From: a virus
Taxonomy: Duplodnaviria; Heunggongvirae; Uroviricota; Caudoviricetes
Virus record (IMG/VR): IMGVR_UViG_3300050026_000282
Span: 13,231-77,230 of that record
Reading direction: 5' to 3' (one strand)
Length of the DNA stretch: 64,000 nt
A program made the position numbers and the translations under genes. Of the stretch, positions 4,023 to 63,031 are shown piece by piece. The notes under the pieces were generated by a model that worked only from the letters and a program-made list of their open reading frames with translations, was not told the DNA's origin and ran no database searches. The first letter of the stretch is position 1. The number at the start of each line of letters is the position of its first letter.

Positions 4023-4024
4023 GC

Positions 4025-9229: not shown

Positions 9230-9377
9230 AACCTTGGAACCTTTTCTGTTTAGGTGCGTCTTCGGGATTCTCTTTCGCCATCCGGCGATGCAACCGGTTG
9301 AGTTGCTTCTTCACCCACTTGCGGAATCCGTTGTGACTCTTCCATGTTCCGTCAAGCTGACCTTTGTACGTCGCCAT
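9219..9377 (-). CDS. small basic protein (52 aa)
   Basis: Read by hand from the sequence: MATYKGQLDGTWKSHNGFRKWVKKQLNRLHRRMAKENPEDAPKQKRFQGYES; GGAG RBS; 11-nt overlap with deoC start. Confidence 0.3.
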   Translation of the reverse strand: MATYKGQLDGTWKSHNGFRKWVKKQLNRLHRRMAKENPEDAPKQKRFQGYES

Positions 9378-9669
9378 CCAGGTACTCCTCGGGCAGGAAG
9401 TAGTGCGGCTCTAATCCTGCGACGTTGTAAATGATGATCTCGTTGTGGAACTCCACGCCCTCGAAGATGTCCAAGGGCAGCGACATGATGCTCGTTATCT
9501 TGGCCCCGCAATCTCGCAGCCATCGCCAGCGCTTACTCTTCCGACGCTGGTTCAAACGGAAGCCCATCGGGACGAACAGGGCGACAGGAATGTCTTTGCC
9601 GAACAACTCGATGATGTGCTCCAGGAACACCTCGGGATATAATCGCTTGCCGGGCGCGCCGTTGAAGGG
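9352..9669 (-). pseudogene. C-terminal fragment of an N6-adenine methyltransferase gene split by the RIT element
   Basis: Minus strand from 9669 reads (P)PFNGAPGKRLYPEVFLEH... The upstream in-frame stop lies inside the element IR. Confidence 0.6.
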
Positions 9670-9766: not shown

Positions 9767-10825
9767 CTACAGGGTTCGCAGAAACTCCATGAGTCCTGGA
9801 TTCTTACGCCACGGCTTCTTCGGTGTGCCATCCTTGATTTCGCACTTTGCAAGCGCTTTGGCCTTCATTTCCAGATCGACCTCCGCATACACATTGGTCG
9901 TACTGAGACACACATGACCCAGCCAGGCTCGAATCGTGTTGATGTCCACGCGGGCTCGAAGCAAGTGGGTCGCGGTCGTGTGGCGAATCGTGTGGGGACT
10001 GACACGTTTCTTCGCCATCGACGGCAGTTTCGTTGCCACCTGAGCGGCGTACCGTTCGACCAGCGCATGAATCCCGAATCGCGTGAGCGGCTGCCCACGC
10101 CGGTTGAGGAAGACATGCTGGCATTCACCACGACGGTCAATGAGAGGTCGCAATTCGTCAACCGTCTTTGGCCACAGCGGACAACGGCGGGGCTTGTTTC
10201 CCTTTCCGTGGATGAGAACGGACGAGGAGTCGCGGTTGGATGCCACACCGAGGTCGAGGTCGCCGATCCGTACTTGGGCTACCTCGTCGGCCCGAGCACC
10301 AGTGTTGTACATAAACAGAAGTATCGCGTAGTCCCGACGGCCTTGGGCAGTGCGACAGTCGGGCGCTTTCCGCAACGCATCCATCTCGTCCTTTTCCAAG
10401 TACCCGACCAGCGGTCGCGCGACCTTCTTCGACGCGATGCTCTGAATCTGACCGACCCATTCCAGGTGTTCCGGGCCGTGCTGACCGATGAATCGCGCCA
10501 AGGAACGAATCGCAGCGAGACGCTGATTTCGTGTGGAAATCCCGCAACCGTGAGTTTTTTCCAAGTCTTGGAGAAAAGACCGGGTGCGGGCTGGCGATAC
10601 ATCCACCACAAGAAGTCGCTCGATCCGCCGGTGGGCGGCGCGAGCGACGAACGGCAGGAATTGTAGCAACGCATCCCTATAGCTCTTCTGCGTATTGGGG
10701 GCGAGATTCCGTTCGGCAACGAGGTGCTCCAACAAGAACCGGCGAACCCAGGGGCTAAGCAAATCGGTGTTAGGCATGACGGCGCTCCTTCCCGGCATAG
10801 CGCTCGAAGCGCTGGCTGGCCTCAC
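9767..10825 (-). CDS. ritC: tyrosine recombinase, RitC-like (third of trio)
   Basis: HTIRHTTATHLL (HxxR) and LGHVCLSTTNVYAEV (catalytic Tyr); upstream Arg in TGARADE. Probable real start MPNTDLL at about 10777; the track ORF overlaps ritB by 56 nt. Confidence 0.75.
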   Translation of the reverse strand: MRPASASSAMPGRSAVMPNTDLLSPWVRRFLLEHLVAERNLAPNTQKSYRDALLQFLPFVARAAHRRIERLLVVDVSPARTRSFLQDLEKTHGCGISTRNQRLAAIRSLARFIGQHGPEHLEWVGQIQSIASKKVARPLVGYLEKDEMDALRKAPDCRTAQGRRDYAILLFMYNTGARADEVAQVRIGDLDLGVASNRDSSSVLIHGKGNKPRRCPLWPKTVDELRPLIDRRGECQHVFLNRRGQPLTRFGIHALVERYAAQVATKLPSMAKKRVSPHTIRHTTATHLLRARVDINTIRAWLGHVCLSTTNVYAEVDLEMKAKALAKCEIKDGTPKKPWRKNPGLMEFLRTL

Positions 10826-11705
10826 GAAGAAGCTCGGGCGTCATGCTCAGGTACACCTGCGTGTCCCGCAAGTAGACGTGGCCGAGATAGACTGACAGGT
10901 GATGCAGGAGTCGCTGCACGTCGGCACCTTGCTGATACCAGGAGGTGAGGCGGTGAACGGCGAACGTATGTCGAAAGTCGTGAATTCGCGGTTGCTGGTG
11001 TGTGTCAGTTCGACGGATGCCCGCGTGATTGCACAAAGTTCGGAACTTCGGTTCGAGTCTCCAGTGCCGAACGGGACCGCCTCCCTGTGTCGTGAAGAAG
11101 GGGGCGTCGGCTGGCCGTCTCTTCGGCCGAGTGCGGTCGTACTGAACCAAGACCCGGTTCAGTTGCGGTCCCACGGGAACCAGTCGCGTCTTGCCGAACT
11201 TCGTGTTCCGAATCGTCAGCACGGACCCACGCAAATCCACGTCGGTGCGAGTGAGGTTTGTCGCCTCACAGATACGCAAGCCGGCTCCATAGTACAGCAG
11301 AATCATTGTGCGGATCGTCACCGGCTCCATTGTGCTGGTGCCCTGCGGATAGGACTCGATTACCCGGAGAAGACGGCGGATTTCTTCCTGTGTGTAGATG
11401 TAGGGAACGAAGACCGGCGGACGCTGCGGCATTACGGTCGGAAGAGGGGGCGTAGTGATGTGTCCTCGGCTTGCGGCATATCGGAAGAAGCACCGCAAGC
11501 AGCTCAATCTGGTGAACCACGTCTTGGTCACTGGTCTGGCTTTGCCAAGGAACGCATCCACATGCCGAACGCGAACATTGGCAATGCTGGCTCTCGGGCC
11601 GCGCGTGCGGCCGAAAGCCCGTAGAACTACCGCATCCGAGATGAAGGATGATCCAAGCGACCGTTGATAGGAGATGTACTGCTCGATCAGGCGTTGGAGG
11701 TTCAT
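10770..11705 (-). CDS. ritB: tyrosine recombinase, RitB-like
   Basis: HDFRHTFAVH and LGHVYLRDTQVYL; 311 aa; 4-nt overlap with ritA. Confidence 0.75.
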   Translation of the reverse strand: MNLQRLIEQYISYQRSLGSSFISDAVVLRAFGRTRGPRASIANVRVRHVDAFLGKARPVTKTWFTRLSCLRCFFRYAASRGHITTPPLPTVMPQRPPVFVPYIYTQEEIRRLLRVIESYPQGTSTMEPVTIRTMILLYYGAGLRICEATNLTRTDVDLRGSVLTIRNTKFGKTRLVPVGPQLNRVLVQYDRTRPKRRPADAPFFTTQGGGPVRHWRLEPKFRTLCNHAGIRRTDTHQQPRIHDFRHTFAVHRLTSWYQQGADVQRLLHHLSVYLGHVYLRDTQVYLSMTPELLREASQRFERYAGKERRHA

Positions 11706-12961
11706 AGGACACCTCCCATATCAAAGTCCGCCACCTGACGGAGGCCAACGAGATCGACCTTGGCGTAAATCCGCGTGCTGTCGGGGTCCATGTGCCCCAA
11801 TTGGTCGCCGATCTCCTTGAGTGACAGGCCGGCGGCCAGCAGTCGCGTCGCGCAGGCATGACGCAGGGCATGAGGCCCGTAGTGCGGAAGCGACACGTCC
11901 AGAGATCGCAGGCGTTTAGCAACCACTCCCCATATCGACGAGTTCACCGGCCGAAATGGAGCCCGCAGTGATAGAAACACTTCCCGATGCGATGATCGCG
12001 GTCGCACCTCTTGCAGGTAACGCAGGATGGCATCGCCGACAGATCGTATTAGCGGATAGGTGCGGACCCGTCCCGTCTTAGAAGACACAACGCGGATCAC
12101 CTCATGCTCCCAGTCGAAATCCTCCAGCCGCAGACGGCAGACCTCCCCGCGCCGGAGGCCGTAGATGGCCAGCAGCATCAGTATCGGGCGGTTACGGATG
12201 TTGGACGGCTTGTCGCCTTCAGTCATGGCAAGCAAACGCCGCACATCGTCCCACGACGGCCCCAGTGGCAACGACGCCTGCGAGAAGACCCGTGGATACC
12301 GAATCGACGCCGCCAATCCTTTACGGCACCAGCCCCTCGCTTCTGCATAACGAAAGAAAGCCCGAAGTGAGTCGGCACAACGTATAATCGTCCTTTTTGA
12401 ATAACCTTTTGGTATGAACAACTTCCGAAAGGCCATGTCAAGCCACTGAGGTGTGATCTTGTGCAGGGAATCCTCCTTGACGTGCAGTCGATTGAAGAAC
12501 TGCTTGATCCACCAACAATGATGGACAATGGTCACGGGCGACAGTTGCGCTTCATGCTCCATGTAGTCAGCAAACGCTTTGATCTTGTTCGCCCAAGGAG
12601 TCAACGGAGCAGGTCGCTCTTGCAGACGCCCGATGTACCGAAGCCACCGTATGGCAAGCGGGCAAAGAGAGCAATAGAAGCGGCGTTGGTTGGCTATCAT
12701 GCGTTCCACTTCGGCGAGAGTCAGAACCTTTCGAGGCCGAACGGCCGGTCCAATCGCGTTGGCAATCGCAAGCAGACGACTCGCGTTGACCAGCAAGGTA
12801 CTCCGGGCGTAGCCCTGATTCGCAAGATGCGTCAGGAAGGCAAGCCGCTCTTCCAGCATGGGGCCTTTGCGATAACGCGCGATTGTAATGGGACATTTAT
12901 ACAGTTGATCGAACATAGTCGAACCTCCGGGGAGAAAGGGAAAACAGAACATTCTCCCCAT
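11702..12961 (-). CDS. ritA: tyrosine recombinase, RitA-like (largest of trio)
   Basis: LRRGEVCRL, HALRHACATRLL, LGHMDPDSTRIYAKV; 419 aa with long N-terminal SAM-like/core-binding region. Confidence 0.75.
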   Translation of the reverse strand: MGRMFCFPFLPGGSTMFDQLYKCPITIARYRKGPMLEERLAFLTHLANQGYARSTLLVNASRLLAIANAIGPAVRPRKVLTLAEVERMIANQRRFYCSLCPLAIRWLRYIGRLQERPAPLTPWANKIKAFADYMEHEAQLSPVTIVHHCWWIKQFFNRLHVKEDSLHKITPQWLDMAFRKLFIPKGYSKRTIIRCADSLRAFFRYAEARGWCRKGLAASIRYPRVFSQASLPLGPSWDDVRRLLAMTEGDKPSNIRNRPILMLLAIYGLRRGEVCRLRLEDFDWEHEVIRVVSSKTGRVRTYPLIRSVGDAILRYLQEVRPRSSHREVFLSLRAPFRPVNSSIWGVVAKRLRSLDVSLPHYGPHALRHACATRLLAAGLSLKEIGDQLGHMDPDSTRIYAKVDLVGLRQVADFDMGGVL

Positions 12962-13034
12962 AGCGTAGCACCTAATTATGTGGTGCAGAAAACGGGCAAA
13001 ATGCTGAAATACGGCTGGAGGAACGAGCTAGACA

Positions 13035-13063
13035 ACATAACTGAATGCGCCACATAAAACCCG
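13035..13063. repeat. RIT terminal inverted repeat, right copy ACATAACTGAATGCGCCACATAAAACCCG
   Basis: Perfect inverted copy of 9670..9698. Confidence 0.8.
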
Positions 13064-13086
13064 TTATGTGGTCCACCACATAACGG
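13061..13086. repeat. 26-bp palindrome CCGTTATGTGGTCCACCACATAACGG at the RIT right junction
   Basis: Two inverted (C)CACATAA half-sites; same 9-mer family as the subterminal GCCACATAA repeats. Confidence 0.6.
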
Positions 13087-13422
13087 GTTGCATAGGACAA
13101 GGTCTGGGCGAGGTAAGTAATTCCACACGATACTCTCGAACTTGCCACGAACGAACTCACTGAGTTTGTTCTTGTAACCACGCTCACGTTGCACTACATC
13201 ACAACCGAACACGGCGCATCCGGCATCCCACCACGGGTCGGTGAGTCTTTGGGTCCCGATTGCAGGATCAAGGACGACCTTGTCGAAGCAGACGCCCCGG
13301 CAGTGCATCGCTGGCCAGAGGATGTCGAACAGGAATCGTGCTACACCAACGGGAGTAAACACGGTGCTGTTCTTTCGGTTGTTGTGGTAGTCGTTGCGAA
13401 CGACGGTTAAAGGACTGGCCAT
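13084..13422 (-). pseudogene. N-terminal fragment of the split N6-adenine methyltransferase (gamma-class, TaqI/Eco57I-like)
   Basis: MASPLTVV...VFTPVGVARFLFDILWP...VLDPAIGTQRLTD...AGCAVFGCDV...DLVLCN. The track ORF then reads through the palindrome and IR (CGGPHNGFYVAHSVM) to a stop at 12976. Confidence 0.6.
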
Positions 13423-16258: not shown

Positions 16259-16855
16259 CTATAGATAGGAACAGTTGAGAAGGCCGAGTGTCGCACGAAT
16301 TCCCAGAAGATTCCTGAGAATGTGTTCTTCTCGTGGAGTCGCCCACAGATCGTTCCACGGGGCCGGCACAGTGATGGCATTCCCGCCGTGCTTGCGGAAC
16401 AAATCGACGTTCACCGAGTAGTCGTCGATCAGGATTGAGTCTCTAGTGGCCAGCAGCCACTTCCTTGGCGTGATGAAATACTGGCGGTGAAGCCAGTCGG
16501 GTAGATTCTTGTGAATCCACTCCAGCTTGCCGGCGAGGCAGTCGGGGTCTTTGGTCGTGCTCGTGGCGATGTAGATGTTGTCTCTGCCGGCCACCGACTC
16601 GCACGTTGCGAGCAGCCAGGGGAGCAACGGAGAGCGCGGGGTGTCTGCCCACGTCTTTCTCCCAAGCGCCTCCCAGAAACTCGCTTCCGTTGTAAACCGC
16701 TGCTCTCCCAGAAGGATGTTTGCGCCTGCCACGATGTCATAGCCCACGTCCGGCAGCCCTTCGTAGCTTGTCGGACTGACCGGGCAGCCGACAAGGTAAA
16801 GCGCATAGGGAGTGAACGTGTTGCACACATCATCCATGTCAAGGAAGATTCTCAT
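16259..16855 (-). CDS. 5'(3')-deoxyribonucleotidase (HAD superfamily, NT5C-like)
   Basis: MRIFLDMDDVCNTF matches HAD motif I of deoxyribonucleotidases; downstream DxxxD-like LIDDYSVN. ATGA-coupled to sigma factor stop. Confidence 0.65.
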   Translation of the reverse strand: MRIFLDMDDVCNTFTPYALYLVGCPVSPTSYEGLPDVGYDIVAGANILLGEQRFTTEASFWEALGRKTWADTPRSPLLPWLLATCESVAGRDNIYIATSTTKDPDCLAGKLEWIHKNLPDWLHRQYFITPRKWLLATRDSILIDDYSVNVDLFRKHGGNAITVPAPWNDLWATPREEHILRNLLGIRATLGLLNCSYL

Positions 16856-17439
16856 GCGCACAGTTCCTTTACGTGTTCTTCGTAGCGGGCGCGGATGGCA
16901 TGAAAGTTGTCGATCACAGTCCGGCGGGGAATGCCGACCAACTGGGCTATTTCAGGGAACGTGTAGCCATCCTTCCGAAGGCGAACTAACTCGCGGTCCA
17001 AGGGCGTTTCACACGCAGATTTGATCTGGTCGGCTTCGTCAACGACTGCGACGGTATCAAATCGGGTTCCCATCGTCCGCTTACTCAAGTCCGTTTCGCT
17101 GGACTGGTAGGGGGCGTGCCGAGCGGCCTTGTGGATAGCATTACGAATCGACTTCGACATATACGCGGTGGGACCCTCCCTGGTCAGAGTTGTGGCTGGC
17201 AGGGTGTTGACCGCGCGTGTTAGTGCCAGAAACGCTTCGCTCGTTAGGTCATCGCGTAGATATTCAAAGTCTGTGTTTGACTTCAGGTAGTCATCGACGA
17301 TGCTCACCACCATCAGCATGTTGCCAGTAATCATCCTCTGGTGCGCTTCTTCGTCGGGAAGTAGAGCATAGAGGGCGTCGTTGTCAGGGGTCTCACAAAC
17401 AGCCTTCATGTTGCTGACAAGTTCAGTGTTGTACTTCAC
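16852..17439 (-). CDS. sigma-70 family RNA polymerase sigma factor (ECF-like)
   Basis: Region-4 HTH LRKDGYTFPEIAQLVGIPRRTVIDNFHAIRARY; region-2-like segment upstream. Confidence 0.5.
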   Translation of the reverse strand: MKYNTELVSNMKAVCETPDNDALYALLPDEEAHQRMITGNMLMVVSIVDDYLKSNTDFEYLRDDLTSEAFLALTRAVNTLPATTLTREGPTAYMSKSIRNAIHKAARHAPYQSSETDLSKRTMGTRFDTVAVVDEADQIKSACETPLDRELVRLRKDGYTFPEIAQLVGIPRRTVIDNFHAIRARYEEHVKELCA

Positions 17440-24091: not shown

Positions 24092-24559
24092 TTAGACCTT
24101 ATAGGACCTGATCCGTGACGGCTGGAGCCGGGACTTGTCGAAGACGACAATCGCTATTGCTTGCACCAGGCCGCATTTCGCGTCACCAAACTTCGGACGA
24201 CCGTGAAGGAAACGAATCTCAGCGGCTTTCATGCAGTAGGTATGCCACCAGTTCGTGTTCGTATGGGCCGGGACGAGCATCACCACGACGCAGTCCGACT
24301 CAAACGCCTTCTGCACCCAACGCCTCAAACGAGCCTTATCCGAGTTGAAGGGAGGGTTGAGCCAGCAAACACCTTTCCACTCTTGCTGTAAGGCATCTTC
24401 CTCGGCCGTGTAGTAAACCGGACACTTAGCGTTGGCTGAGTCAGCAGCCAAGTCGATGGTGAAGTGAAACTCCTCATTCAGCCTGTTGAACAGGGATTGA
24501 GGAGTAGACCATGACTGGCTGCGTGACTCGAACCTCGGCTGTCTCTTGGGCAACAACAT
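24092..24559 (-). CDS. DNA N6-adenine methyltransferase, phage Dam-like
   Basis: WSTPQSLFNRLNEEFHFTIDLAA ... CWLNPPFN, the phage Dam-like signature (family assignment from memory) including NPPF. Confidence 0.75.
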   Translation of the reverse strand: MLLPKRQPRFESRSQSWSTPQSLFNRLNEEFHFTIDLAADSANAKCPVYYTAEEDALQQEWKGVCWLNPPFNSDKARLRRWVQKAFESDCVVVMLVPAHTNTNWWHTYCMKAAEIRFLHGRPKFGDAKCGLVQAIAIVVFDKSRLQPSRIRSYKV

Positions 24560-25636
24560 TTACAGCGTCTTTGTAGCGGGAGCGCGATGGGTGGCCCGAA
24601 TGACAGAGTCGATAAGTTGCTGTAAGGCACAGGGGACAGCGGCCGGACCATCCACGATGGCCTTGTGTGGCATAATGACGGGCCGGCTTGGGTCAATCGC
24701 CCATTCCAGCTTGTACTTCACGGCCCAGTCCCACATGCGGCGAGTCGGAGCAATGAAGTTGAGCCCAGCACCGGCACCGCGAACGAGGAGGCCAATGCAC
24801 TTGCCATTCTTCAGGTAGACGCCGCCGCCACTGCTGCCGGGATAGCCCATGCAAGATGTCTGATCGAAGACTTTCCCCGTGTTGAGCAAGTCGCGGTCGG
24901 TCTGAGAGATAATCCCGTAGCTGACACTGTCGTACAGCCCTAGCGTGCAGCCGACGTGGACAAGTTCGGTGCCGATTGGCGACGGTTTGCCGGAGTCGTC
25001 GAACTCGGCCGAGGCGTCAGTGAAGTTGTCCTTCAACACTTCCAACAAAGCCAGGTCGTCGCCCACTTCGGGATCACTGTAGGCCAGGACTTTCGCCTCC
25101 GTTCGCACCTCACCAACCCAGCGGCCGTCAACCCGTCGCTCCTGGTAGATCGTCGCGCTCTTGAAAGTGCCGTTCGGCTGCATCAGCAATTGAGCAACGT
25201 GGCCGGCCGTCCAGACGAATGTGCGCTTGACGTTCCCTAGCTGCCGCGTGACGAGCACTCCGGTGCCGCAGCCGTGGTCGGCCTCCACACGCACAGAAAT
25301 GTCTTGCAACATCTGGTGAGGGGCCGCAGTAATCAGCTTGGCGAGCACGTTTTCGTCAGCAGTGACACGCTTGTTGAGGAGATGCGTAGCATCGGCAATG
25401 CTATTCGCGGTGGCGGCAGCATAGTCAGCAGTGCTACGCATGGCAGAGGCAGTCGAGGCGGCTTCGCTAGCAGTGCTACTCACAGCATCAATGCGCCTGG
25501 CAACAGCGGCCTCGTCGGCTACTGCCCTGTCACGTAATCCCAACATGCCGCCACCAACGCAACCGAGCAACACTCCGATCACAGTGAACAACACGGCACA
25601 GATCACAACATGCACCTTCATCAGAGGCTCCTTCAA
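24560..25636 (-). CDS. membrane-anchored trypsin-like serine protease (S1 family)
   Basis: N-terminal helix, then His TAGHV, Asp DDLALLEV, Ser GYPGSSGGGVY. Confidence 0.6.
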   Translation of the reverse strand: MKEPLMKVHVVICAVLFTVIGVLLGCVGGGMLGLRDRAVADEAAVARRIDAVSSTASEAASTASAMRSTADYAAATANSIADATHLLNKRVTADENVLAKLITAAPHQMLQDISVRVEADHGCGTGVLVTRQLGNVKRTFVWTAGHVAQLLMQPNGTFKSATIYQERRVDGRWVGEVRTEAKVLAYSDPEVGDDLALLEVLKDNFTDASAEFDDSGKPSPIGTELVHVGCTLGLYDSVSYGIISQTDRDLLNTGKVFDQTSCMGYPGSSGGGVYLKNGKCIGLLVRGAGAGLNFIAPTRRMWDWAVKYKLEWAIDPSRPVIMPHKAIVDGPAAVPCALQQLIDSVIRATHRAPATKTL

Positions 25637-32051: not shown

Positions 32052-32690
32052 TTGCAAATCATGCCCACTCTTTTTCTCGGCTTCGGCCACTACTCCCGCA
32101 CAGGGAAAGACACGACCGCCAATTACTTCCTTAGCCACTACGGCGACGGAGTTCTCAAGCGGTCCTTTGCCTGGAAGCTCAAGCAGATCACCTACGAGCT
32201 ATACGCTTGGGCTGGCCTGATGCCGCCGGAGTATTACGAGACGCCGGAGGGGGCAAAGGCGCGTGACATCAAGCTGCCTGGCTTGGATATGACGCCCGTT
32301 GAAGTCTGGGTGGCATTCGGGACCGAGGCCATTCGCAAGAACGTCTACCAGGGGACGTGGGTGGACTACTTGCTGAAGAATGACCACAAGTGCGACGTGC
32401 TGGTCATCCCTGACGTGCGTTTCCCCAATGAAGCCGAGGCGATCAAGACTGCGGGCGGGAAGATCGTCAAGGTCGTGCGACCAGGCTATGGGCCGCGCAA
32501 CACAGTCGCCGACCGGGCCTTGATCGGCTACGACGGGTGGGACTATGTCATCGGCGAGTCGGGTGAAATGGATGATCTTGACAACTGGGCCTGCTTGTTC
32601 GCTATGGCGGCTCGGCGAGAGATCGCGTGGCCCCGTCAAACGGCGGAAGAGCGGAAGGCAGCCCTGACAGTAGAGAGGATTGAACAGTGA
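32052..32690 (+). CDS. deoxynucleoside monophosphate kinase (T4 Dnk-like)
   Basis: LGFGHYSRTGKDTTANYF P-loop variant, as in T4 gp1 GxxRSGKDT. Confidence 0.6.
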   Translation: MQIMPTLFLGFGHYSRTGKDTTANYFLSHYGDGVLKRSFAWKLKQITYELYAWAGLMPPEYYETPEGAKARDIKLPGLDMTPVEVWVAFGTEAIRKNVYQGTWVDYLLKNDHKCDVLVIPDVRFPNEAEAIKTAGGKIVKVVRPGYGPRNTVADRALIGYDGWDYVIGESGEMDDLDNWACLFAMAARREIAWPRQTAEERKAALTVERIEQ

Positions 32691-34245: not shown

Positions 34246-34712
34246 CGGGCTACCCTGCCTGCGGCACTTGCGCCGACGCCCAGGGGCCGCCCAACTCCCT
34301 GGCTCTTTATCGGCTCTGCCTCGGTGGCAGACCAGAGCACCACAATAGACTTGTCGATGTCCGCGCGTGCCGAGCGTGCAAGGGCATCGGAGAAGACAAG
34401 CCGGATGCGCTTGGCGCTTCCCGTCCTGACCTTGTCTTCCCACTTCCCGAGCCCACAGGCGAGTTCCGGTACACGAGTCGCCCGGACGGTTCAATACTGT
34501 ACGAGAAACTCGGCTGGGAATTGCCCGCCAGCATTGCCGGGTATCAGCGCGATGAAGTCAACAAGTGGCTCTTCCGACCGCTCTGGCCCATCTGCGCAAC
34601 AAGAGAGCCACGGGCTTTCATCCGTGGCTCTTGCGGTTGCGTCCAGGTGGAAATGCGGTGCGATGGCAAGCTCGCCTCTCTGACGGATTGCCGGCTCTGC
34701 CGTCATGTGTAG
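34230..34712 (+). CDS. cysteine-rich hypothetical protein (about 160 aa)
   Basis: Internal start MDYEVAGYPACGTCADAQ; 12 Cys including CGTC, CRAC, CGC, CRLC. Confidence 0.35.
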   Translation: MDYEVAGYPACGTCADAQGPPNSLALYRLCLGGRPEHHNRLVDVRACRACKGIGEDKPDALGASRPDLVFPLPEPTGEFRYTSRPDGSILYEKLGWELPASIAGYQRDEVNKWLFRPLWPICATREPRAFIRGSCGCVQVEMRCDGKLASLTDCRLCRHV

Positions 34713-35278
34713 AAATGAGCGTGAGCTATTCCAGCGTGCTCCGGGGTCGAGGTCAATAGTTTGAAGACCTTGCACTCGGCAAAGTCCACAATTCGGCAAC
34801 GGGCGACCGAGACGCCAAACTGCCGAAGTTCCCTCCGCACGGCATGTGTGAGCGTCTTATTGAAGGTCTCGTCGCCCACCCCGGCAAGAATCTCGGCCCA
34901 AGTGTGATTGGCGATGACTCTGACGACTACCGCTTGGGTCAGGTCCGTCACGGTCACGTCCACGTCCCAGTTCTGCTTGCCAATCGCCTTCACGATGTCG
35001 CCAATCCGGTAGACCACCAAGGTCTTGACCACGATCTTCTTGCCATCCTTGGTGGCTAGTACCTGATCTGGGATAGCCAATGTCTGCCGGGCCGTGACCA
35101 TCACCTCAACCTCAGTGGTCAACGGCCAGTAGAAGTGTAGCCCCGGTGCCATTGCCTTCACCTGGCTTCCACACTTCCATTTGACGCCAGCATGGGTCGC
35201 TCGAATGATTACCAATCGAGGAATAAATCGTCCCAGGGCTTCAATGATCTGGGTCAGCCAGGTGAAGGCACCTTCCAT
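34703..35278 (-). CDS. SPFH (band 7/prohibitin-like) domain protein
   Basis: TARQTLAIPDQVLATKDGKKIVVKTLVVYRIGD ... RCRIVDF pattern. Confidence 0.6.
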   Translation of the reverse strand: MEGAFTWLTQIIEALGRFIPRLVIIRATHAGVKWKCGSQVKAMAPGLHFYWPLTTEVEVMVTARQTLAIPDQVLATKDGKKIVVKTLVVYRIGDIVKAIGKQNWDVDVTVTDLTQAVVVRVIANHTWAEILAGVGDETFNKTLTHAVRRELRQFGVSVARCRIVDFAECKVFKLLTSTPEHAGIAHAHFYT

Positions 35279-56600: not shown

Positions 56601-58583
56601 TTATTTGAACGGGGCACGTTGCGACAGGTCTTTCAGCGTTCCCGCATTGAGCGGTGCTGCATCTGCCGGATCGTACTTCTTGATCGGTTTCTTACCCTTC
56701 CCGCGCTTCGGGGGCCGGCCGTTGACCGCAATGTCCGGGCTCTGGCTTGCGGTCCGCACCATCGTCTCGTCCAGACCCGGATCAACCAGGCTGTCGGCCG
56801 AATCATCCGAGTTGATTACCTCCGGCCGCTCCAAGGTTGCTGACAGGTCCGGCACGCCACGGGAGGCCGGATCATTTTCCTTGCGCTGCGTCGGGTCATT
56901 CGGGTCATAGATGCCGGGAGTCTGCTCGTTGCTTTGGGTGACGCCCTGGGCGGTAGCAATTGCTCTTGCCCGCCGAATCGAAGCCGCTTCTGCTTTCTTC
57001 TCTTCACCTGCGTTGCAGCCAATCGCCAACGAACCGGTCTCCGGCGACATAATGCCGGCCGTTACAGCCTGGATCACCACGTTGGCATCACTCGTGGTGT
57101 ACGGGACCGAATCAATCTCGTCCCGAATCTTCTGTAAGGTCGTCACGGGAATCTTGCCGCCGAGCAGCGTGTTGACGATCTCTTTGGCGATCTCTCGCTT
57201 GACGGTCGGGCCGGGCACCTTACTCATCAGGCCGGACAGCTTGTTCGACTCCTCGACACGGTCGTTGTCCGTCTTGATGCTGTAGCGGTCCGGGTACTTG
57301 ACCGTAGCAATCTGTCGGCCTTCCGGCTTGACGCTCTCGTAGGCCGCCCAATACTCAGAGATCAGACGTTCGGCGTTCTCCAACTCCAGCCCGATGTAGG
57401 ACAAGCCGCCTTCCAACCCTTGGTTATCCAACTGCTTGGACTCGGCTGAGGCACGAGTGGAGAGCGTTTGAACGGCAAGGTTTACGCACTTGCGGATGTC
57501 CGCTTCGAGCTTCTCCTGAAGCATCAAAGACGCCTTGAGCGGTTCGGACGAGGGGTTGATAAAGGCCGGCCGCTCCGTCTCTTTGTCGTAGATCATCCCG
57601 TGGGTCACGCCCACCTTCTGATCCTTGCTGGCCGAGGGCTGACCACCAGCCTCGGGCGAATCATCCCCAGTGTCAAACTGCTTCAAGTGCGAGCCGGCCG
57701 CTCGCATGTCCTCTTGTTTCGTGAGGAAGGGAAAATTGCTGCGCAGTGCATAGTTCACGTCACTGGACGTGAGGTTGAGCATTGCAATCTGGGCGTGTGC
57801 TGCATCCTTGAGGAGCGATTCACCAATGTCAAGAAGGACGAAGGGAATCCGCTTGATCTTCAACTCCAGCGGACGCTCGCCGGTCGGCGAGGGCGTTCCG
57901 TCCGGTTCAATCGGCACACCATTGCTCTGGTAGTATTGCAGATTGACAAAGCCCGTCTCTTTGTTAATCCACATGCGCCGATAGCGAACGACTTCGGCGA
58001 TTGGTAGGCCACTGGGCCAGTCATAGCCCATCACCGTCTCGCGGAGTAGGACCGACTGGAACTCGGACGGAAAGGCTGGTCGGTTGTTGGTATAGCTGAA
58101 GATCGACTCAAGCGGAAACACGTACAGATAGGGCGTCACGCCTTGGATGTCTTGCAGCGTCGGCCCAATATCCATCGGGTGATCGACGTAGATACCGACG
58201 CGCCCCATGCTCAAGAGTTCCGAGAGGACTTTGATACCGAGGAAGACACTCATCGTGGAACCACGATGATCGACGCCACCGTTGAGCCCTGCGATTGCGT
58301 TCTGGTAGGAGAGACTGCCGCCGCTCCGGCTCACATCACTCAAGCGACTGAAGATGGCGTTGCGGATTTCATTGATGGCAGTGCGACACGGATTCGGAAT
58401 GGGCGTCATCTCGCGTCGGCGGATGAAGTCCCCCATGTCCTCGCGGGTGTCGAACTTCTTCAGGTAACGATTGCGATAAATCTCGCCGCCGCCGTATGTG
58501 AGCCGCCACAGTACCCAATTAGCGAAGGCGCTCAGATAGCCCGGCATCTGCGCGGACGACACACTGAAAGCACCTGCGCCCAT
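56601..58583 (-). CDS. portal protein
   Basis: 660 aa directly downstream of the terminase large subunit. Confidence 0.6.
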   Translation of the reverse strand: MGAGAFSVSSAQMPGYLSAFANWVLWRLTYGGGEIYRNRYLKKFDTREDMGDFIRRREMTPIPNPCRTAINEIRNAIFSRLSDVSRSGGSLSYQNAIAGLNGGVDHRGSTMSVFLGIKVLSELLSMGRVGIYVDHPMDIGPTLQDIQGVTPYLYVFPLESIFSYTNNRPAFPSEFQSVLLRETVMGYDWPSGLPIAEVVRYRRMWINKETGFVNLQYYQSNGVPIEPDGTPSPTGERPLELKIKRIPFVLLDIGESLLKDAAHAQIAMLNLTSSDVNYALRSNFPFLTKQEDMRAAGSHLKQFDTGDDSPEAGGQPSASKDQKVGVTHGMIYDKETERPAFINPSSEPLKASLMLQEKLEADIRKCVNLAVQTLSTRASAESKQLDNQGLEGGLSYIGLELENAERLISEYWAAYESVKPEGRQIATVKYPDRYSIKTDNDRVEESNKLSGLMSKVPGPTVKREIAKEIVNTLLGGKIPVTTLQKIRDEIDSVPYTTSDANVVIQAVTAGIMSPETGSLAIGCNAGEEKKAEAASIRRARAIATAQGVTQSNEQTPGIYDPNDPTQRKENDPASRGVPDLSATLERPEVINSDDSADSLVDPGLDETMVRTASQSPDIAVNGRPPKRGKGKKPIKKYDPADAAPLNAGTLKDLSQRAPFK

Positions 58584-58594
58584 TATGATGACCC

Positions 58595-60286
58595 CTACAT
58601 TATCTTCCCGAGCGGTCTCGATCCGGTGTGCGGAGCAAACTGCAAAGCAATCTCAGCGTAAGTCAGGGCGTGTGCGAAGTGGTCGGGTCCGGTGTTGACA
58701 AAGACTTTGACGGGTTGAGTCTCTTTGTCCTTCTTGTTGTCCTTCACCCGTTCGTAAGTGCTGACGAGATTCTTGATGTGCTCTTTGAACTCGTCCGGGA
58801 TGTCTCGTGGTAGCTCGATGCGTGTTGGGTCTGTCTTGAATCGTCCGAGGGATGCGGTCAGCCAATCGGTGCGGTCCACCGTCAGCATCGGTGCGCCGGA
58901 TTCCTTCTCTGTCTCATTGATCTCTCGTGCCGCCACTCCTGTGCGGTATCGCGTGATGGCCGCATACCCATCGAACTTCCGGCAGAAGGCGCGAGCCGCG
59001 TTGATCTCCGGGTCGGCGTCGATCACTCCGTACAAGACTTGCCACTCGCCGTACTGCTCACCAAGTCGCTTCCAGACTTCCGCGTCTGACGCCTTGCCCA
59101 CCCACAAGACACGGCATTTGTACGCCGCACTCAGGTCTTTCCCAGGCCGAGCGACCTGAATCCACTCACACACCACGATGTAGCACGTTTTGCCCTGGTC
59201 GCAGCCCACCGTGATGAGCCGCTCGCCGCCACGTCGCGGTCTTGGGCTCTCCATCGTGTAATCACGAATGGAGCGAGCAATCATGTCGTCGGTGACTTTT
59301 GCCCCATCGCCAATAAAGGGCTGTCCGAGTTTGCTGTTGTGGAACTCTTTGGCGGCCAGTTCGTCTCCGAAGCCTCGAAAGTACGCGACAACCAACTCTG
59401 CCGGTGATACTGTGAAACTGTAAAGCTGATTGATGTTGAAGCCGCGAACGTCCGGGTTACTGTTCGGGGCCGTCGATACCCACTCGCCGTCACTCAGGAA
59501 GTTAGGTTTCTCCTCCTGAGCCAGTTTCCCTTTGCACTCTTTGCACTTGATGAACGACTCGTTGCAGCGGGCGTCCGTCGTGTGTTCGCCAACGATCTCG
59601 ATGCAGTCCGGCCAGATGAGTTCAGTGCGTCGGCCGCAACACGGGCATCTGAAGAAAAAGTGCTCTTGGGTCGATCCGTTGTAGAGCTTATGGATACCGT
59701 ATTCGGGGACGGTCGGTGTCGAGATTCCCCAGACGTGCTTGTGAACCTGACCTGACAGACGTTCCAGGGCCAGCCACAACTGCTGCTGGTCCATTTCGTC
59801 GAGTTCGTCCAGGACCAACTCCGAGACGGGGACCGACTTCAAGTTTCCGCGACCGCGCGATCCTCGAATGTAAAGTGTGTTCGCTCTCGCCCGCTTAATG
59901 TTGACCGCATTCGTGTCGGTGAAGATCGACTTGAGGTAAGGACTGTTGTCGAGCGCCCCGCCGAAACGTGACTTGCTGAAGTCACTCGCACCCATCGCAG
60001 TCGGCAGGACGTAGAGCACGTCTCGCTTTGGCCCGTCGATGGTGTACAGCGCCCGGTTGATTGCCGCTTCCGTGACGCCGACTTGTGCTCCCTTCATCAC
60101 CCAGGTAAAGGGTGCCCATGAGTCGTGAAGTTCCTTGACCCACGGGTGATATTTCCACGAGTATGGCCCCGGAAAGGGCTCACCCATCACTCGGCGTTCG
60201 GTCGCCCATCGAGAGCAACTGGTCAATGAGATCGATGTTATCCCGCGACGGAGACGCTGTGCGAATTCCTCTTCGAGACTTGGCAT
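58595..60286 (-). CDS. terL: terminase large subunit (GpA-like)
   Basis: KGAQVGVTEAAINRALY P-loop variant typical of the GpA family; Walker B LVLDELDE; C-terminal nuclease-like region. Confidence 0.8.
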   Translation of the reverse strand: MPSLEEEFAQRLRRGITSISLTSCSRWATERRVMGEPFPGPYSWKYHPWVKELHDSWAPFTWVMKGAQVGVTEAAINRALYTIDGPKRDVLYVLPTAMGASDFSKSRFGGALDNSPYLKSIFTDTNAVNIKRARANTLYIRGSRGRGNLKSVPVSELVLDELDEMDQQQLWLALERLSGQVHKHVWGISTPTVPEYGIHKLYNGSTQEHFFFRCPCCGRRTELIWPDCIEIVGEHTTDARCNESFIKCKECKGKLAQEEKPNFLSDGEWVSTAPNSNPDVRGFNINQLYSFTVSPAELVVAYFRGFGDELAAKEFHNSKLGQPFIGDGAKVTDDMIARSIRDYTMESPRPRRGGERLITVGCDQGKTCYIVVCEWIQVARPGKDLSAAYKCRVLWVGKASDAEVWKRLGEQYGEWQVLYGVIDADPEINAARAFCRKFDGYAAITRYRTGVAAREINETEKESGAPMLTVDRTDWLTASLGRFKTDPTRIELPRDIPDEFKEHIKNLVSTYERVKDNKKDKETQPVKVFVNTGPDHFAHALTYAEIALQFAPHTGSRPLGKIM

Positions 60287-60298
60287 CTTGTCATCACG

Positions 60299-60769
60299 CT
60301 AGTTCAACTCGGCTTGGATGACTTCGATGTCGTTCGACCGTACTTCGTGAGGGGTGCCAGGATTGAGGATGAAAGTCGGCAGAGAAGTGATGTTGTACTT
60401 GCGAGCGATGTCCGGGTGCTCGTCGTAATTGATCCGCTCCACAATCACGCCTGCCGCTTCAAGCTGATTGACGACAGGCTTGACCCGCTGGCAAGCAGTA
60501 CACCAGTCGGCGTGAAAGACGAGGAGGTGATGCTTGTCCACGGGACGCACCGGAGTAACGATGACTGGTGTTACAATCACCGGACGGACCGGGTGGTTAG
60601 GCCGGACAGGACAAACGGGGTGAACGGGGCGTACCGGGCGCACCGGCCGCATATTCGAGTGCGGCCGTCGCCATCCCATGACTTCCGGGGATGGCGAGAC
60701 GACCAAAGTCGCCAAGCCGCCGATCAACAGGGAAGCCAGGAATGAAGCTAGGAATGAGTTTCGATTCAC
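60299..60769 (-). CDS. secreted thioredoxin-like protein with (R)PVxP repeat linker
   Basis: Signal peptide MNRNSFLASFLASLLIGGLATLVV; repeats RPVRPVRPVHPVCPVRPNHPVRPVIVTPVIVTPVRPV; thioredoxin motif WCTACQ and fold-like C-terminus. Confidence 0.55.
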   Translation of the reverse strand: MNRNSFLASFLASLLIGGLATLVVSPSPEVMGWRRPHSNMRPVRPVRPVHPVCPVRPNHPVRPVIVTPVIVTPVRPVDKHHLLVFHADWCTACQRVKPVVNQLEAAGVIVERINYDEHPDIARKYNITSLPTFILNPGTPHEVRSNDIEVIQAELN

Positions 60770-61155
60770 TTCTTGGGCTCCACGGCAGAAATCTTAGCCT
60801 TAATCAAGGCGAGCCCTTCGGGCGTGGACAGCTTCTTGTCCAGCACGCGCTCATAGGTCGCCTCAAGGTCTTTCAAGATCGCGTCGTTGCCGGCCTGGAC
60901 GACCTTCGCCATGTCGTGCATCTTCTGGATCATGTCCGTCACATTGGTGATGGCAAAGTCTTCCAGCATTGCCGGAAGCCAGGTCAGGCCGTATTGCCGA
61001 AGCGAGATCGCCAAGGACAGGGCGGCCTTCTTCTGTTCGTCGAGTTTCGAGTTCTTGCCAAACAGCCACTTGCCGGCGACACTGCCGAGGTAGACACACA
61101 GGGCAACCACGATGACCGTCCACAGAATCTCTTGGAATCCGAACATCTGTCTCAC
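60766..61155 (-). CDS. membrane protein (N-terminal TM + coiled coil; holin/i-spanin-like)
   Basis: ILWTVIVVALCVYLGSVAG TM, then charged helical region. Confidence 0.4.
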   Translation of the reverse strand: MRQMFGFQEILWTVIVVALCVYLGSVAGKWLFGKNSKLDEQKKAALSLAISLRQYGLTWLPAMLEDFAITNVTDMIQKMHDMAKVVQAGNDAILKDLEATYERVLDKKLSTPEGLALIKAKISAVEPKK

Positions 61156-61158
61156 CTC

Positions 61159-61794
61159 TTAGTGGGCTGCATGAACTTGCTTGTTGACACTCGCGCCGTA
61201 CCCGATGCCGACGCCTACCGCCAGGGCGGCGAGGGCAAACAAGAAAATCGGAATCTGATTCTCCTCAACTTCGGGAGGGCCATCTTGATCGAGCGGCGGC
61301 GGTGGTGTTACCAGCGTGATCGCTGGTGCGGGCTTAGGAATGTCATCGGGAGTGACGTTATGACGCCGCCGCCAAGGCAGGAGAATGAACCGACTAGCTT
61401 CCTTTTCGACGGCTGCCGCGATCTCCTGGTAGAGCGTATCGGGATTTGGTTTGTTGGCCTGGTACACCACGACGCCTTTGTCCGTCTGGACGCGAACGCA
61501 TGGCAAACTGTTGATCGTGAACTTGCCCTGATTCTTCTGGTAGCGCTCAGAGTAGACGGCCGTGTCGGTCGTCACTGGCAGAAAATGCACCTGCGACTTC
61601 AGACGTTGCATCTGGTCCGTGGAATCGAAGGCGCTCAGCAGCGCTTTGTACTGGGCGTCGTTCGCTTCGCCGATGACCGAGATATACCACTTGCCAGCAT
61701 CGGACGGCAGATTGATGACCTTCTCCTCGGCCGCCAGGCTGAGACTGGGCATCAAGGACAGGACCACGAGCAGGATCAAGAGCAGTTGTTTCAT
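61159..61794 (-). CDS. secreted protein with C-terminal membrane anchor
   Basis: Signal peptide MKQLLLILLVVLSLMPSLSLA; C-terminal IPIFLFALAALAVGVGIGYG. Confidence 0.4.
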   Translation of the reverse strand: MKQLLLILLVVLSLMPSLSLAAEEKVINLPSDAGKWYISVIGEANDAQYKALLSAFDSTDQMQRLKSQVHFLPVTTDTAVYSERYQKNQGKFTINSLPCVRVQTDKGVVVYQANKPNPDTLYQEIAAAVEKEASRFILLPWRRRHNVTPDDIPKPAPAITLVTPPPPLDQDGPPEVEENQIPIFLFALAALAVGVGIGYGASVNKQVHAAH

Positions 61795-62345
61795 CGCATC
61801 CCTCGTTGAGGTAGAGGTGCCGCCGGCGAGTAGACGAGGCAGAACGCCCAGCCACCCGACTTCTTCCAGTCGGAGATCAACTCTTCCCGCGTCATCCAGT
61901 GGTAATGTTCCACGTCGTTGTTATCGAGAACGCACGCCCGGTGGGCGTCGATGTAGACGAGCGCGACAACGTGATCGCCGTCGTCGCAACAGATTCCACA
62001 ACCACGGCGAGTGCGGCAGGCTCGTTCCAAAAAGGACGCGTCTCCGTCAGTGGTCTCGGCGTAGCGAATGCCTTCCAGGTCGAGCGCTTTACCCAAGGTC
62101 GTCGGGCCAGCACCATTGCCATACTGCTTGATTCGTTCGGCCGCCGCATACTGGCCTACCCAGCGGAGTAGCGAGACGGTCGTCGCCCACACGCACGAAC
62201 CCTCTCCTCGGTTGCCCCACCAATTCGTCTGTCGGAGGCTGATGGGCAAATTGACGGTCGGCATCTCGGTGCAAATGCGAACGCGCCGAGGACCTTCGCA
62301 GCCCGCGAGAAGCAAACTCAAAAAAGCAATGACAACGAGCTTCAC
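61791..62345 (-). CDS. lipoprotein, papain-like cysteine peptidase (C39-like)
   Basis: Lipobox LLAGC; SCVWATTVSLLRWVG Cys box and DHVVALVYID His box. Confidence 0.45.
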   Translation of the reverse strand: MKLVVIAFLSLLLAGCEGPRRVRICTEMPTVNLPISLRQTNWWGNRGEGSCVWATTVSLLRWVGQYAAAERIKQYGNGAGPTTLGKALDLEGIRYAETTDGDASFLERACRTRRGCGICCDDGDHVVALVYIDAHRACVLDNNDVEHYHWMTREELISDWKKSGGWAFCLVYSPAAPLPQRGMR

Positions 62346-62920
62346 TTCAGTCTCTTGGCGCGGAGGAGCAACTGGTGCTGGCGTAGGTGTCGGATGAGGT
62401 GATTCGGGTTCCAGCGGGCAGCGTCGTCGGTCGGCATGATGCCATCGTCAGAGTAGGCGGCAGCGACCAGTTCCGAGCAGAAGATATGGTTCAACGCCTC
62501 TTCATGCAGCATGGACTCGAACCAGGAGAAGCCGGTGCCGGCCGCACGGAAAGCCTTCAATTCGTCGTAGGGCGTCCCGACCAGGCCGACCAGGAATCGG
62601 CTCAGTCGTTGCTCCTCGAAGTCGAACAGCGGGCGGTAGAGCGGGTACAGCCAAACCTTGCCTTGGTAGGTCTCGACAACCTTGTCCAGGCCGTGGGCTT
62701 GGACGCCATTGAATCGTTTCCCGCTAATCTCGCACGGCAGCGCATCGAGCGTGGTGCTCTCGAACAGCAGTTGCCGGCCGTCTGCCGCGTCGGCTATGAC
62801 GCCAACATGGCTGGCCGACCATCGCGGCACCCCGTAGGTGCCCAGGTTGATGAGATCGCTCACCAGCGATTGACCGCTGAAAGCAACCAGATCGCCGGGT
62901 TTGATGCCTGATAAACTCAC
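62342..62920 (-). CDS. permuted papain-fold peptidase (C92 / YiiX-like), candidate endolysin
   Basis: KPGDLVAFSG...SHVGVIAD ... CSELVAAAYSDDGI. GTG start assumed; upstream part of track ORF overlaps terminator/operator. Confidence 0.5.
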   Translation of the reverse strand: MSLSGIKPGDLVAFSGQSLVSDLINLGTYGVPRWSASHVGVIADAADGRQLLFESTTLDALPCEISGKRFNGVQAHGLDKVVETYQGKVWLYPLYRPLFDFEEQRLSRFLVGLVGTPYDELKAFRAAGTGFSWFESMLHEEALNHIFCSELVAAAYSDDGIMPTDDAARWNPNHLIRHLRQHQLLLRAKRLK

Positions 62921-62977
62921 ATATATAGAAGAGTCAAAAAACGAGTTTTTAGGCGGAAAATTAGAAGAATTCTGCCC

Positions 62978-63012
62978 AAGAAAAAGAAAAGGGCACCTCA
63001 AATCAGGTGCCC
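62978..63012 (-). terminator. rho-independent terminator for the 63032..63301 gene
   Basis: Stem GGGCACCT / AGGTGCCC with 7-nt loop, followed on the minus strand by TTTTCTTTTTCTT. Confidence 0.5.
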
Positions 63013-63031
63013 TTCTGAATCTACCGACTCA

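Follow-up and report, generated by a model that had tools for sequence, protein, structure and literature searches.

A cassette of thiol enzymes and thioredoxin folds at the head of the packaging operon in a Planctomycetota phage: a candidate lysis module

Which proteins could release a tailed phage from its host when no recognisable muralytic enzyme is found among its genes? The question is raised by a 64,000-nucleotide stretch of a Caudoviricetes virus (IMG/VR record IMGVR_UViG_3300050026_000282, positions 13,231 to 77,230), hereafter the window, in which five minus-strand genes (60299-62920) lie directly upstream of the large terminase gene (TerL). They encode a C92-like thiol hydrolase, a lipoprotein with a C39-like papain fold (lipo184), an exported thioredoxin-fold protein (sp211), a single-pass membrane protein (tm129) and a membrane-tethered thioredoxin (Trx). 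Judging from position and composition, we propose with moderate confidence that the five genes form a late envelope-disruption (lysis) module of a temperate Planctomycetota phage, which would act through thiol chemistry and without a muralytic glycosidase or amidase.

The five open reading frames (ORFs) occupy 62342-62920, 61791-62345, 61159-61794, 60766-61155 and 60299-60769 of the minus strand in the ORF listing, as an earlier note made from the sequence had described them, and identical calls for all five were found in a near-identical public contig (Logan SRR35914902, L001). They are co-oriented and form one operon, being the first, promoter-proximal block of a transcription unit that runs into the packaging genes. 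Three junctions are 4-nt start/stop overlaps, and a 3-nt gap precedes the fourth gene; TerL (58595-60286, minus strand; GpA type; PF05876, E=5.8e-31; phrog_675, E=1.4e-89) starts 12 nt past the Trx stop, and the portal gene (56601-58583, minus strand; phrog_145) follows next. The placement upstream of the terminase reported in the earlier note is confirmed, the cassette heading an operon whose next genes are TerL and the portal gene, and this position is conserved in relatives. A late transcription unit next to the packaging genes is a feature of canonical lysis cassettes and is present here, and the tight coupling to TerL indicates that the five genes would be expressed late. The GC content of the cassette region (0.58) equals the window average, so that the cassette does not appear to be a recent moron.

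The 5′ boundary of the transcription unit appears to be an intrinsic terminator hairpin (62987-63016, minus strand) with a 12-bp stem (AGAAGGGCACCU/AGGUGCCCUUUU) followed by a U-run, located past the stop of the upstream gene (63032) and ahead of the GTG at 62920. Read from 63016 to 62987, it folds with a dG of -27.3 kcal/mol (z = -3.3), and 0 of 200 shuffles folded equally well. An AT-rich spacer of ~60 nt, reminiscent of a late-operon leader, lies between this hairpin and the first cassette gene. The ORF listing also offers a longer alternative for the first gene (62342-63001, 219 aa), which was rejected because it would span the terminator hairpin, while the GTG start at 62920 is matched by a public 192-aa call (P0090, 100% identical) and fits the N-termini of the family; the 192-aa start is therefore favoured. 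The plus-strand ORFs at 60314-60745 and 60691-61809 were likewise discarded as genes, as homology, Pfam matches and public calls favour the minus strand.

According to sequence signals and hydropathy, four of the five proteins bear Sec, lipoprotein or transmembrane signals, and hydropathy identifies the cassette as the sole cluster of exported and membrane proteins in the 64 kb. The earlier description of five exported or membrane proteins thus holds for four of them and fails for the C92-like protein, which has neither a signal nor a transmembrane domain (TMD). Late exported or membrane proteins that cannot be parts of the virion would most simply be lysis proteins. The export signals also rule out any of the five genes as a small terminase or a prohead protease. 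No recognisable small terminase was found beside TerL in the window (58595-60769). Relatives carry one or two small genes of 74-124 aa between Trx and TerL (L055, 12697-13378; L056, 12306-12879), as well as, upstream of the C92-like gene, a conserved protein of ~182 aa whose N-terminus is rich in Cys; the window contains no homologue of either.

Trx (60299-60769, minus strand; 156 aa) exceeds the PF00085 cut-off of 23.5 with 46 bits (E=5.9e-12), and matches thioredoxins in the PDB at E~1e-10; its domain (residues 78-156) contains W89-C-T-A-C93 (60491-60505) and the cis-Pro motif SLPT. By these matches it is a genuine thioredoxin domain. WCxxC is kept in 30/30 orthologues from related loci, with a highly variable dipeptide between the two cysteines, and many orthologues have extra Cys pairs flanking the domain. 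An extracytoplasmic location is predicted from the hydrophobic N-terminus together with the lipoboxes of the orthologues, as 27 of the 30 possess a lipobox followed by a Pro/Gln-rich linker of 11-46 residues. Among these orthologues, those of L017-L019, L023, L028, L036, L040 and L043 combine a Tat-like RRxFL motif with the lipobox, where the window copy reads RNSFL; the combination suggests export of an already folded thioredoxin lipoprotein by the Tat route.

The window copy departs from its relatives at the anchor. Its hydrophobic segment (residues 6-24; 60698-60754) has a degenerate lipobox, LLIGG-L in place of the relatives' L[IA][AG]GC, so that the lipidated Cys is lost, and no acceptable signal peptidase I (SPase I) site is present (Pro at +1 after VVS). 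The protein is therefore most likely retained by an uncleaved membrane anchor, and the xPV repeats that follow (residues 41-76; 60542-60649) would constitute a tether rather than a mature N-terminus. The earlier note had correctly recognised a WCTAC thioredoxin and the repeat run, whereas its cleaved signal and repeat-bearing mature N-terminus are less likely. At the DNA level the repeat is weak (a 9-bp unit in 2.8 copies, 60627-60651), and as judged from the orthologue alignment the RPV/HPV/CPV/VTPV run is the local version, in this phage, of a variable Pro-rich tether.

What such a thioredoxin might do beside cysteine peptidases is indicated by a related locus. In L059, a 984-kb contig, a gene encoding a C92-like protein 56% identical to that of the window is followed two genes on by a 612-aa exported fusion protein (10976-12814, plus strand) with precomputed Peptidase_C1 and Thioredoxin matches. 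From N- to C-terminus, the fusion comprises a signal/anchor, an Ig-like domain, a Pro-rich linker, a middle domain, a papain-type domain (NQGNYGTC … GGHE … NSWG), a further linker and a thioredoxin (WCVPC). The latter shares 33% identity with the window Trx (E=4e-14) and 56-60% with the cassette Trx of L017, L030, L040, L056 and L058. As far as sequences can tell, this natural fusion is the strongest evidence here for Trx working with a cysteine peptidase, a coupling that is therefore supported. It supports only part of what the earlier note had suggested, since the caging disulfide invoked there for the peptidase finds no backing (see below). A 96-aa protein with a C-terminal TMD is encoded directly after the fusion (12817-13107), and L060 encodes a homologous peptidase without Trx (7923-9404). 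Neither lipo184 nor sp211 could be connected with the other parts of the fusion: lipo184 and the C1 domain gave an hhalign probability of 0.6%, despite a by-eye similarity around 'PTV[ND]L…Q…G[ST]CV', and hhalign paired sp211 with the middle domain only through their Pro-rich linkers.

Lipo184 (61791-62345, minus strand; 184 aa) carries a lipobox, L13-A-G-C16, as 75/89 of its homologues also carry a lipobox, and its AlphaFold2 model (pLDDT 86.8) adopts a C39-like papain fold. The earlier description of an LLAGC lipobox followed by a C39-like cysteine peptidase is thus borne out at the level of the fold. The putative catalytic residues, in papain order, are Gln39, Cys51 (62193-62195), His125 (61971-61973) and Asp141-Asn142; among 30 family sequences, C51 is invariant and Q39, H125, D141, N142 and N143 are kept in at least 90%, with a TRRG motif (residues 112-115) also invariant. 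No Pfam or PHROG match was obtained, and cultured-phage relatives were not found. A search with the family hidden Markov model nevertheless returned 1,044 cluster representatives at E<=1e-3, which makes this a sizeable uncurated family, and many of the weak matches in BFVD, a collection of viral structure predictions, are annotated as endolysin, CHAP or Lysin A peptidase domains. A bacteriocin-processing C39 peptidase proper was rejected, as lipo184 is a stand-alone lipoprotein without an ABC transporter in the cassette and without a PF03412 or PF13529 match, and shares the fold alone. The protein contains about nine cysteines, but those other than Cys51 occur in only 40-73% of members (C110 73%, C116 50%, C138 40%). 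With C51 as the sole invariant Cys, the idea of a disulfide-caged peptidase awaiting activation, put forward in the earlier note, is not supported.

The C92-like protein (62342-62920, minus strand; 192 aa) is, by profile and motif evidence, a divergent permuted NlpC/P60 enzyme of the YaeF/YiiX kind. It matches PF05708 (Peptidase_C92) below the gathering threshold (E=8e-4; 19.9 bits, cut-off 27), and only 5/30 members of its family match that model at E<=0.01 (best 8e-6); phrog_1128 is matched at E=7.8e-15, and the family profile matches the YiiX-type structure 3KW0 at E=1.8e-3 with the SH and CSE motifs aligned. His38 (SHVG; 62807-62809) and Cys148 (FCSE; 62477-62479) are invariant in a 30-sequence alignment, in the permuted His-before-Cys order, and Cys63 is a second invariant Cys. 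A C92 permuted-papain peptidase, as proposed before, is therefore right in the permuted order and sub-threshold in the Pfam assignment. The only cultured-phage relative, a hypothetical protein of a Microcoleus phage (27% identical), has an uninformative context. Other permuted NlpC/P60 proteins (YiiX/BcPPNE, LRAT/HRASLS, the type VI secretion toxins Tox-Act1/TseH, and LnsA) share with it the His-before-Cys order, a length of ~190 aa and, as the alignment to 3KW0 indicates, the SH…CSE motifs; unlike them, the phage protein falls below the Pfam C92 threshold, possesses the extra invariant Cys63 and is encoded in a phage late operon beside exported peptidases.

The target of this enzyme is less clear than its fold. 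In the literature, canonical NlpC/P60 branches are assigned to peptidoglycan hydrolysis and permuted branches to lipid-directed activity, examples being YiiX with a fatty acid bound in a hydrophobic S1 pocket, the phospholipase Tox-Act1, and LnsA, a component of a lipoprotein N-acyltransferase (PMC3142127, PMC12994826, PMC7387801). Alignment and hydropathy revealed no signal peptide or TMD in the C92-like protein or in any of its 29 aligned homologues, and it is thus predicted to be cytoplasmic. Given the missing export signal and the lipid-directed relatives, it cannot safely be called an endolysin; membrane lipid, lipid-peptide bonds or peptides may be its targets. The label of peptidase-based lysis in the earlier note is accordingly half right, as one of the two enzymes it relied on belongs to a family reported to be lipid-directed and is not exported.

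The two remaining proteins would be fixed in the cytoplasmic membrane. Sp211 (61159-61794, minus strand; 211 aa) has a cleavable signal of SPase I type (…SLSLA|AEEK), a thioredoxin-fold domain (~34-138), a Pro-rich tether (~145-175), and a C-terminal TMD (181-199) with a short basic tail. It is the second thioredoxin fold of the cassette and predicted to be redox-inactive for want of a CxxC; the signal and the C-terminal anchor had been noticed before, and the fold had been missed. Tm129 (60766-61155, minus strand; 126/129 aa) has, by hydropathy and family alignment, a very short N-terminus, one TMD (~10-32), in agreement with the N-terminal membrane segment described earlier, a basic juxtamembrane stretch (GKWLFGKNSKLDEQKK) and a charged helical C-domain. 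Members with short N-termini have no K/R before the TMD versus 2-5 after it, a bias that predicts an N-out/C-in topology and fits the general description of a holin rather than an i-spanin, which is oriented N-in/C-out and paired with a small outer-membrane lipoprotein, the o-spanin (PMC6139136); an i-spanin was ruled out for tm129 by this charge bias. No holin family in Pfam or PHROGs was matched, the one weak match being to phrog_3828 (E=2e-3), and tm129 is the best holin candidate of the cassette, being holin-like by general features. A home-made heptad score, applied to the coiled coil that the earlier note had named for tm129, gave no information, as even lambda Rz was inseparable from shuffles.

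Could the lysis functions reside elsewhere? In the 64-kb window, 64 ORFs were compared with Pfam and 29 of these also with PHROGs (nine in or neighbouring the cassette and 20 others without a Pfam match), and no match to any family of lysozymes, transglycosylases, amidases, M15/M23 peptidases, holins or spanins was obtained. In L055, L056 and L058, the precomputed Pfam matches include nothing muralytic and neither a holin nor a spanin in the 10 kb on either side of the cassette. By hydropathy, the window contains no small multi-TMD ORF, and outside the cassette only scattered single hydrophobic segments. The absence of a glycosidase or amidase endolysin asserted in the earlier note therefore stands for the 64-kb window, and the canonical endolysin or holin elsewhere that would have spoken against its proposal was found neither there nor in the three related contexts. 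PADLOC gave no match for any cassette protein, and a reading of the cassette as a defence system was dropped on that ground.

The cassette is widely distributed among related elements. A TerL search of IMG/VR recovered 30 loci (TerL 54-66% identical), 18 of which keep the order C92-like gene, lipo184, sp211 and tm129 upstream of TerL, most of the others being cut by contig ends. Scanning species-representative genomes with the lipo184 alignment yielded 22 loci, 21 of them labelled Planctomycetota (Pirellulales, Thermoguttaceae, Planctomycetaceae), the families named belonging to the class Planctomycetia, and several lying inside contigs of 0.2-1.8 Mb. These labels and the location within large contigs indicate Planctomycetota as the host phylum and a temperate lifestyle for the phages. 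The remaining locus, L054 (CAVWAD010000004.1), is labelled 'uncultured archaeon' and carries the same prophage module with a TerL 64% identical; this is probably a binning or labelling error. Many prophages in Planctomycetota metagenome-assembled genomes show the identical four-gene order, and distant elements keep the four-gene core and lack Trx, which is present in 25/28 loci having both tm129 and TerL. The core thus consists of four genes, with Trx as a frequent accessory. Homing-type Endonuclease_7 genes are inserted upstream of the C92-like gene in L056 (9116-9433) and between lipo184 and the sp211-like gene in L058 (10695-11018).

Two sister phages, L025 (4583-6582) and L032 (1515-4856), lack the cassette in the 8 kb upstream of TerL and have at that place a Tat-signal protein of 331-352 aa with papain-like motifs (GDCxGHAF … H … NSWG), together with a second protein of 257-314 aa that has a signal peptide and an Ig/PKD-like region. 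This positional replacement is counted in favour of the cassette being a lysis module. The Tat-signal protein could not be certified as a Peptidase_C1, the match being E=0.026 in L025 only, with no Pfam or PDB sequence match in L032, and is papain-like by its motifs.

The rest of the window is phage throughout, including a P22-type coat protein, tape-measure protein, PolA, primase-helicase, ligase, methylases and two integrases, with no tRNAs; no close cultured phage was found, TerL being ~25% identical to its best matches. Two tyrosine recombinase genes lie next to each other (311 and 419 aa; 10770-12961, minus strand), the second with an N-terminal SAM-like domain. A trypsin-like serine protease of 358 aa (24560-25636, minus strand; PF13365, E=4e-15), with a hydrophobic segment at residues 10-28 and a weak PADLOC match to LmuA (E=8e-5), is encoded between a Dam methylase and a helicase and represents a third exported or membrane protease of this phage. 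Genes at 3264-4576, 8579-9229, 16259-16861, 24092-24559 and 32052-32690, among them an N6/N4 methylase, a nucleoside 2-deoxyribosyltransferase-like protein, a DeoC-type aldolase, an NT5C nucleotidase, the Dam methylase and a dNMP kinase, may indicate that nucleotides are salvaged or DNA bases modified. An SPFH/Band-7 protein (34703-35278, minus strand; E=7e-20) and a protein resembling extracytoplasmic function sigma factors (16852-17439, minus strand; weak region 2 and region 4 matches) were also found.

If the cassette is a lysis module, its parts could act together as follows. Tm129 would build up in the cytoplasmic membrane, its charged C-domain facing inwards, and serve as a holin-like trigger. 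The C92-like enzyme could gain access to the envelope through tm129, or attack membrane lipid or lipid-peptide bonds from the inside. Lipo184, exported and lipid-anchored, would cut envelope protein or peptide cross-links, while the tethered Trx would assist this exported peptidase under the oxidising conditions of the periplasm. In the simplest case, Trx would keep the sole invariant, catalytic Cys of the peptidase reduced, and it might also reduce disulfides of cysteine-rich wall proteins. Sp211, anchored C-terminally in the inner membrane, may be a partner, scaffold or regulator.

Such a set of activities could be suited to the envelope of the host. The planctomycete wall has been described as protein-dominated, with cysteine-rich YTV proteins restricted to Planctomycetia (PMC12673574), and in Planctopirus limnophila most genes of peptidoglycan synthesis are non-essential and one YTV-domain protein is essential, with Lgt and Lnt named among the genes for lipoprotein targeting (PMC10632474). 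With a protein-rich wall and dispensable peptidoglycan synthesis, an exiting phage may depend less on a muramidase than on proteases and a disulfide reductase. The host context also raises a more specific scheme of reductive-proteolytic lysis of Planctomycetia, in which Trx would reduce YTV-type wall proteins and keep papain-type peptidases active and the C92-like enzyme would attack membrane lipid, without any muralytic enzyme; in this full form we consider it unlikely.

Several points weigh against a lysis module of this kind. The functions proposed for the cassette are all deduced from folds, signals and gene position. For the C92-like protein, the missing export signal and a family reported to be lipid-directed make a part in lysis less certain, and tm129, with a single TMD, matches no known holin family. 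Trx is missing from 3/28 close loci as well as from the distant core modules, in keeping with an accessory, and the direction of its chemistry, reductase versus oxidase/isomerase, is not readable from the very variable CxxC dipeptide. The terminator and the AT-rich spacer were not found in the relatives examined. The peptidase homologue of L060 lies among structural-looking genes, not beside a terminase. Finally, ~13 kb of the apparent 77,230-bp source contig lie outside the 64-kb window, and divergent muralytic enzymes may escape Pfam and PHROGs.

The last two points lead to the alternative that the cassette is an accessory module for the outer layers, equivalent to spanins or LysB and directed at the outer membrane and protein wall, with primary lysis left to an endolysin and holin that are unrecognised or encoded in the 13 kb outside the window. 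Here the inner-membrane-anchored sp211 and the two lipoproteins, lipo184 and Trx, would bridge the periplasm, and sp211 with its periplasmic domain, long Pro-rich tether and inner-membrane anchor does look spanin-like. The linkers after the lipoyl-Cys of both lipoproteins are variable and Pro-rich, and a variable, Pro-gaining linker is a described trait of o-spanins; moreover, spanins require disulfides that the Dsb system of the host forms in the periplasm (PMC6139136), a dependence that would give Trx a natural role. Nevertheless, no endolysin or holin family was detected in the 64 kb or in the 10-kb flanks of the cassettes of L055, L056 and L058, tm129 is predicted to be oriented opposite to an i-spanin, and the lipoproteins are enzymes of 112-184 aa rather than short fusogenic peptides. 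The need for a muralytic enzyme is itself weakened by the reported non-essentiality of peptidoglycan synthesis in a planctomycete (PMC10632474), and on these grounds we regard an accessory role as rather improbable. Within a lysis role, Trx could alternatively be a DsbA/DsbC-like oxidase or isomerase that folds cysteine-rich exported phage proteins, with no peptidase activation or wall attack. The ~nine Cys of lipo184, with C110, C116 and C138 partly conserved, the flanking Cys pairs in many Trx orthologues and the disulfides that spanins need from Dsb (PMC6139136) are compatible with this, as is the fact that the Pfam and PHROGs scans of the window showed no DsbD/CcdA-type electron donor. Against it, W-C-x-x-C with Thr after the cis-Pro (SLPT, SVPT) is typical of reducing thioredoxins rather than of DsbA, the non-catalytic Cys of lipo184 are not invariant, and a thioredoxin of this family is fused to a papain-type peptidase, an enzyme that requires a reduced catalytic Cys. 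An oxidase or isomerase is thus possible but doubtful, slightly less so than the accessory role.

Further from lysis, the exported proteases and the oxidoreductase could act on surface proteins or receptors of the host, in the course of infection or in the lysogen, in the sense of envelope remodelling, surface-protein processing or superinfection exclusion. Lipoproteins for exclusion are known to be frequent in temperate phages, the fused-peptidase homologue of L060 is located among structural-looking genes, and the core module occurs without a nearby TerL in L047, L048, L050 and L052. However, with its tight translational coupling to TerL and the portal gene the cassette should be expressed late rather than in the lysogen, it has the same GC content as the genome and no PADLOC match, diverged phages retain it as the first block of the late operon, and no other candidate for lysis was found in the window. 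A function apart from lysis is therefore the least probable of these explanations and seems quite unlikely, and a late lysis module acting through thiol chemistry is the reading we retain.

Compared with known systems, the module resembles the lambda-type holin/endolysin/spanin cassette in its place at the head of the late operon before the packaging genes, its small overlapping genes for membrane proteins and lipoproteins, its small single-TMD protein with a charged C-terminus and its lipoproteins with Pro-rich linkers. It has neither the muralytic endolysin nor the i-spanin/o-spanin pair of a canonical cassette; unlike the lambda type, it contains no N-in/C-out i-spanin, its lipoproteins are enzymes, and it includes two thioredoxin-fold proteins and a cytoplasmic permuted NlpC/P60 enzyme. 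The proposed dependence of an exported lytic enzyme, at its catalytic Cys, on thiol-disulfide exchange in the periplasm would be shared with Lyz of phage P1, the analogue that fits the caging idea of the earlier note; Lyz is a lysozyme with an intramolecular caging disulfide and a signal-arrest-release (SAR) anchor that needs no separate oxidoreductase. Lipo184 differs from it in having a lipobox instead of a SAR domain, no conserved caging Cys, and a separate Trx (fused to a peptidase in L059). The pseudomurein endoisopeptidases PeiW, PeiP and PeiR of methanogen (pro)viruses show no detectable sequence homology to the cassette and differ from its peptidase in possessing pseudomurein-binding repeats and no lipobox.

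A parallel for the proposed role of Trx may be offered by periplasmic DsbG and DsbC of Escherichia coli, which reduce sulfenylated single cysteines, so that a thioredoxin-fold reductant shields a lone active-site Cys, for instance in L,D-transpeptidases (PMC4624244); lipo184 likewise has one invariant Cys. Both of these Dsb proteins are soluble, form V-shaped dimers and are supplied by DsbD, whereas the phage Trx is a monomer-sized classical thioredoxin tethered by lipid or a TMD. The LysA/LysB pair of mycobacteriophages similarly combines several enzymes, one of them lipid-directed, to suit an unusual multilayer envelope, but LysA has muralytic domains, LysB is a cutinase-like esterase and no thioredoxin is involved. 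Our literature search found no described phage lysis system for Planctomycetota and no precedent for a thioredoxin in a phage lysis cassette, and the combination seen in this module is undescribed there. Its parts come from known superfamilies (thioredoxin, the clan CA papain fold and permuted NlpC/P60), although the lipo184 and sp211 families have no curated model.

Whether protein or peptidoglycan is the holding layer of the planctomycete wall has long been debated (PMC12673574, PMC10632474), and the structures that a phage has to break on its way out report independently on which layer keeps the cell intact. The module connects an uncharacterised C39-like family, a redox-inactive thioredoxin-fold protein and a phage periplasmic thioredoxin tied to a cysteine peptidase by natural fusion. 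If it is merely accessory, it would still represent envelope-specific lysis equipment comparable to LysB of mycobacteriophages. If it is a lysis module with two papain-superfamily thiol enzymes, two thioredoxin folds and no muralytic enzyme, it would constitute a new lysis strategy, and the peptidase and Trx could become ready-made reagents for opening planctomycete cells. Should lysis prove reductive and proteolytic in the full sense outlined above, these phages would provide genetic evidence for protein as the load-bearing layer of the planctomycete envelope.

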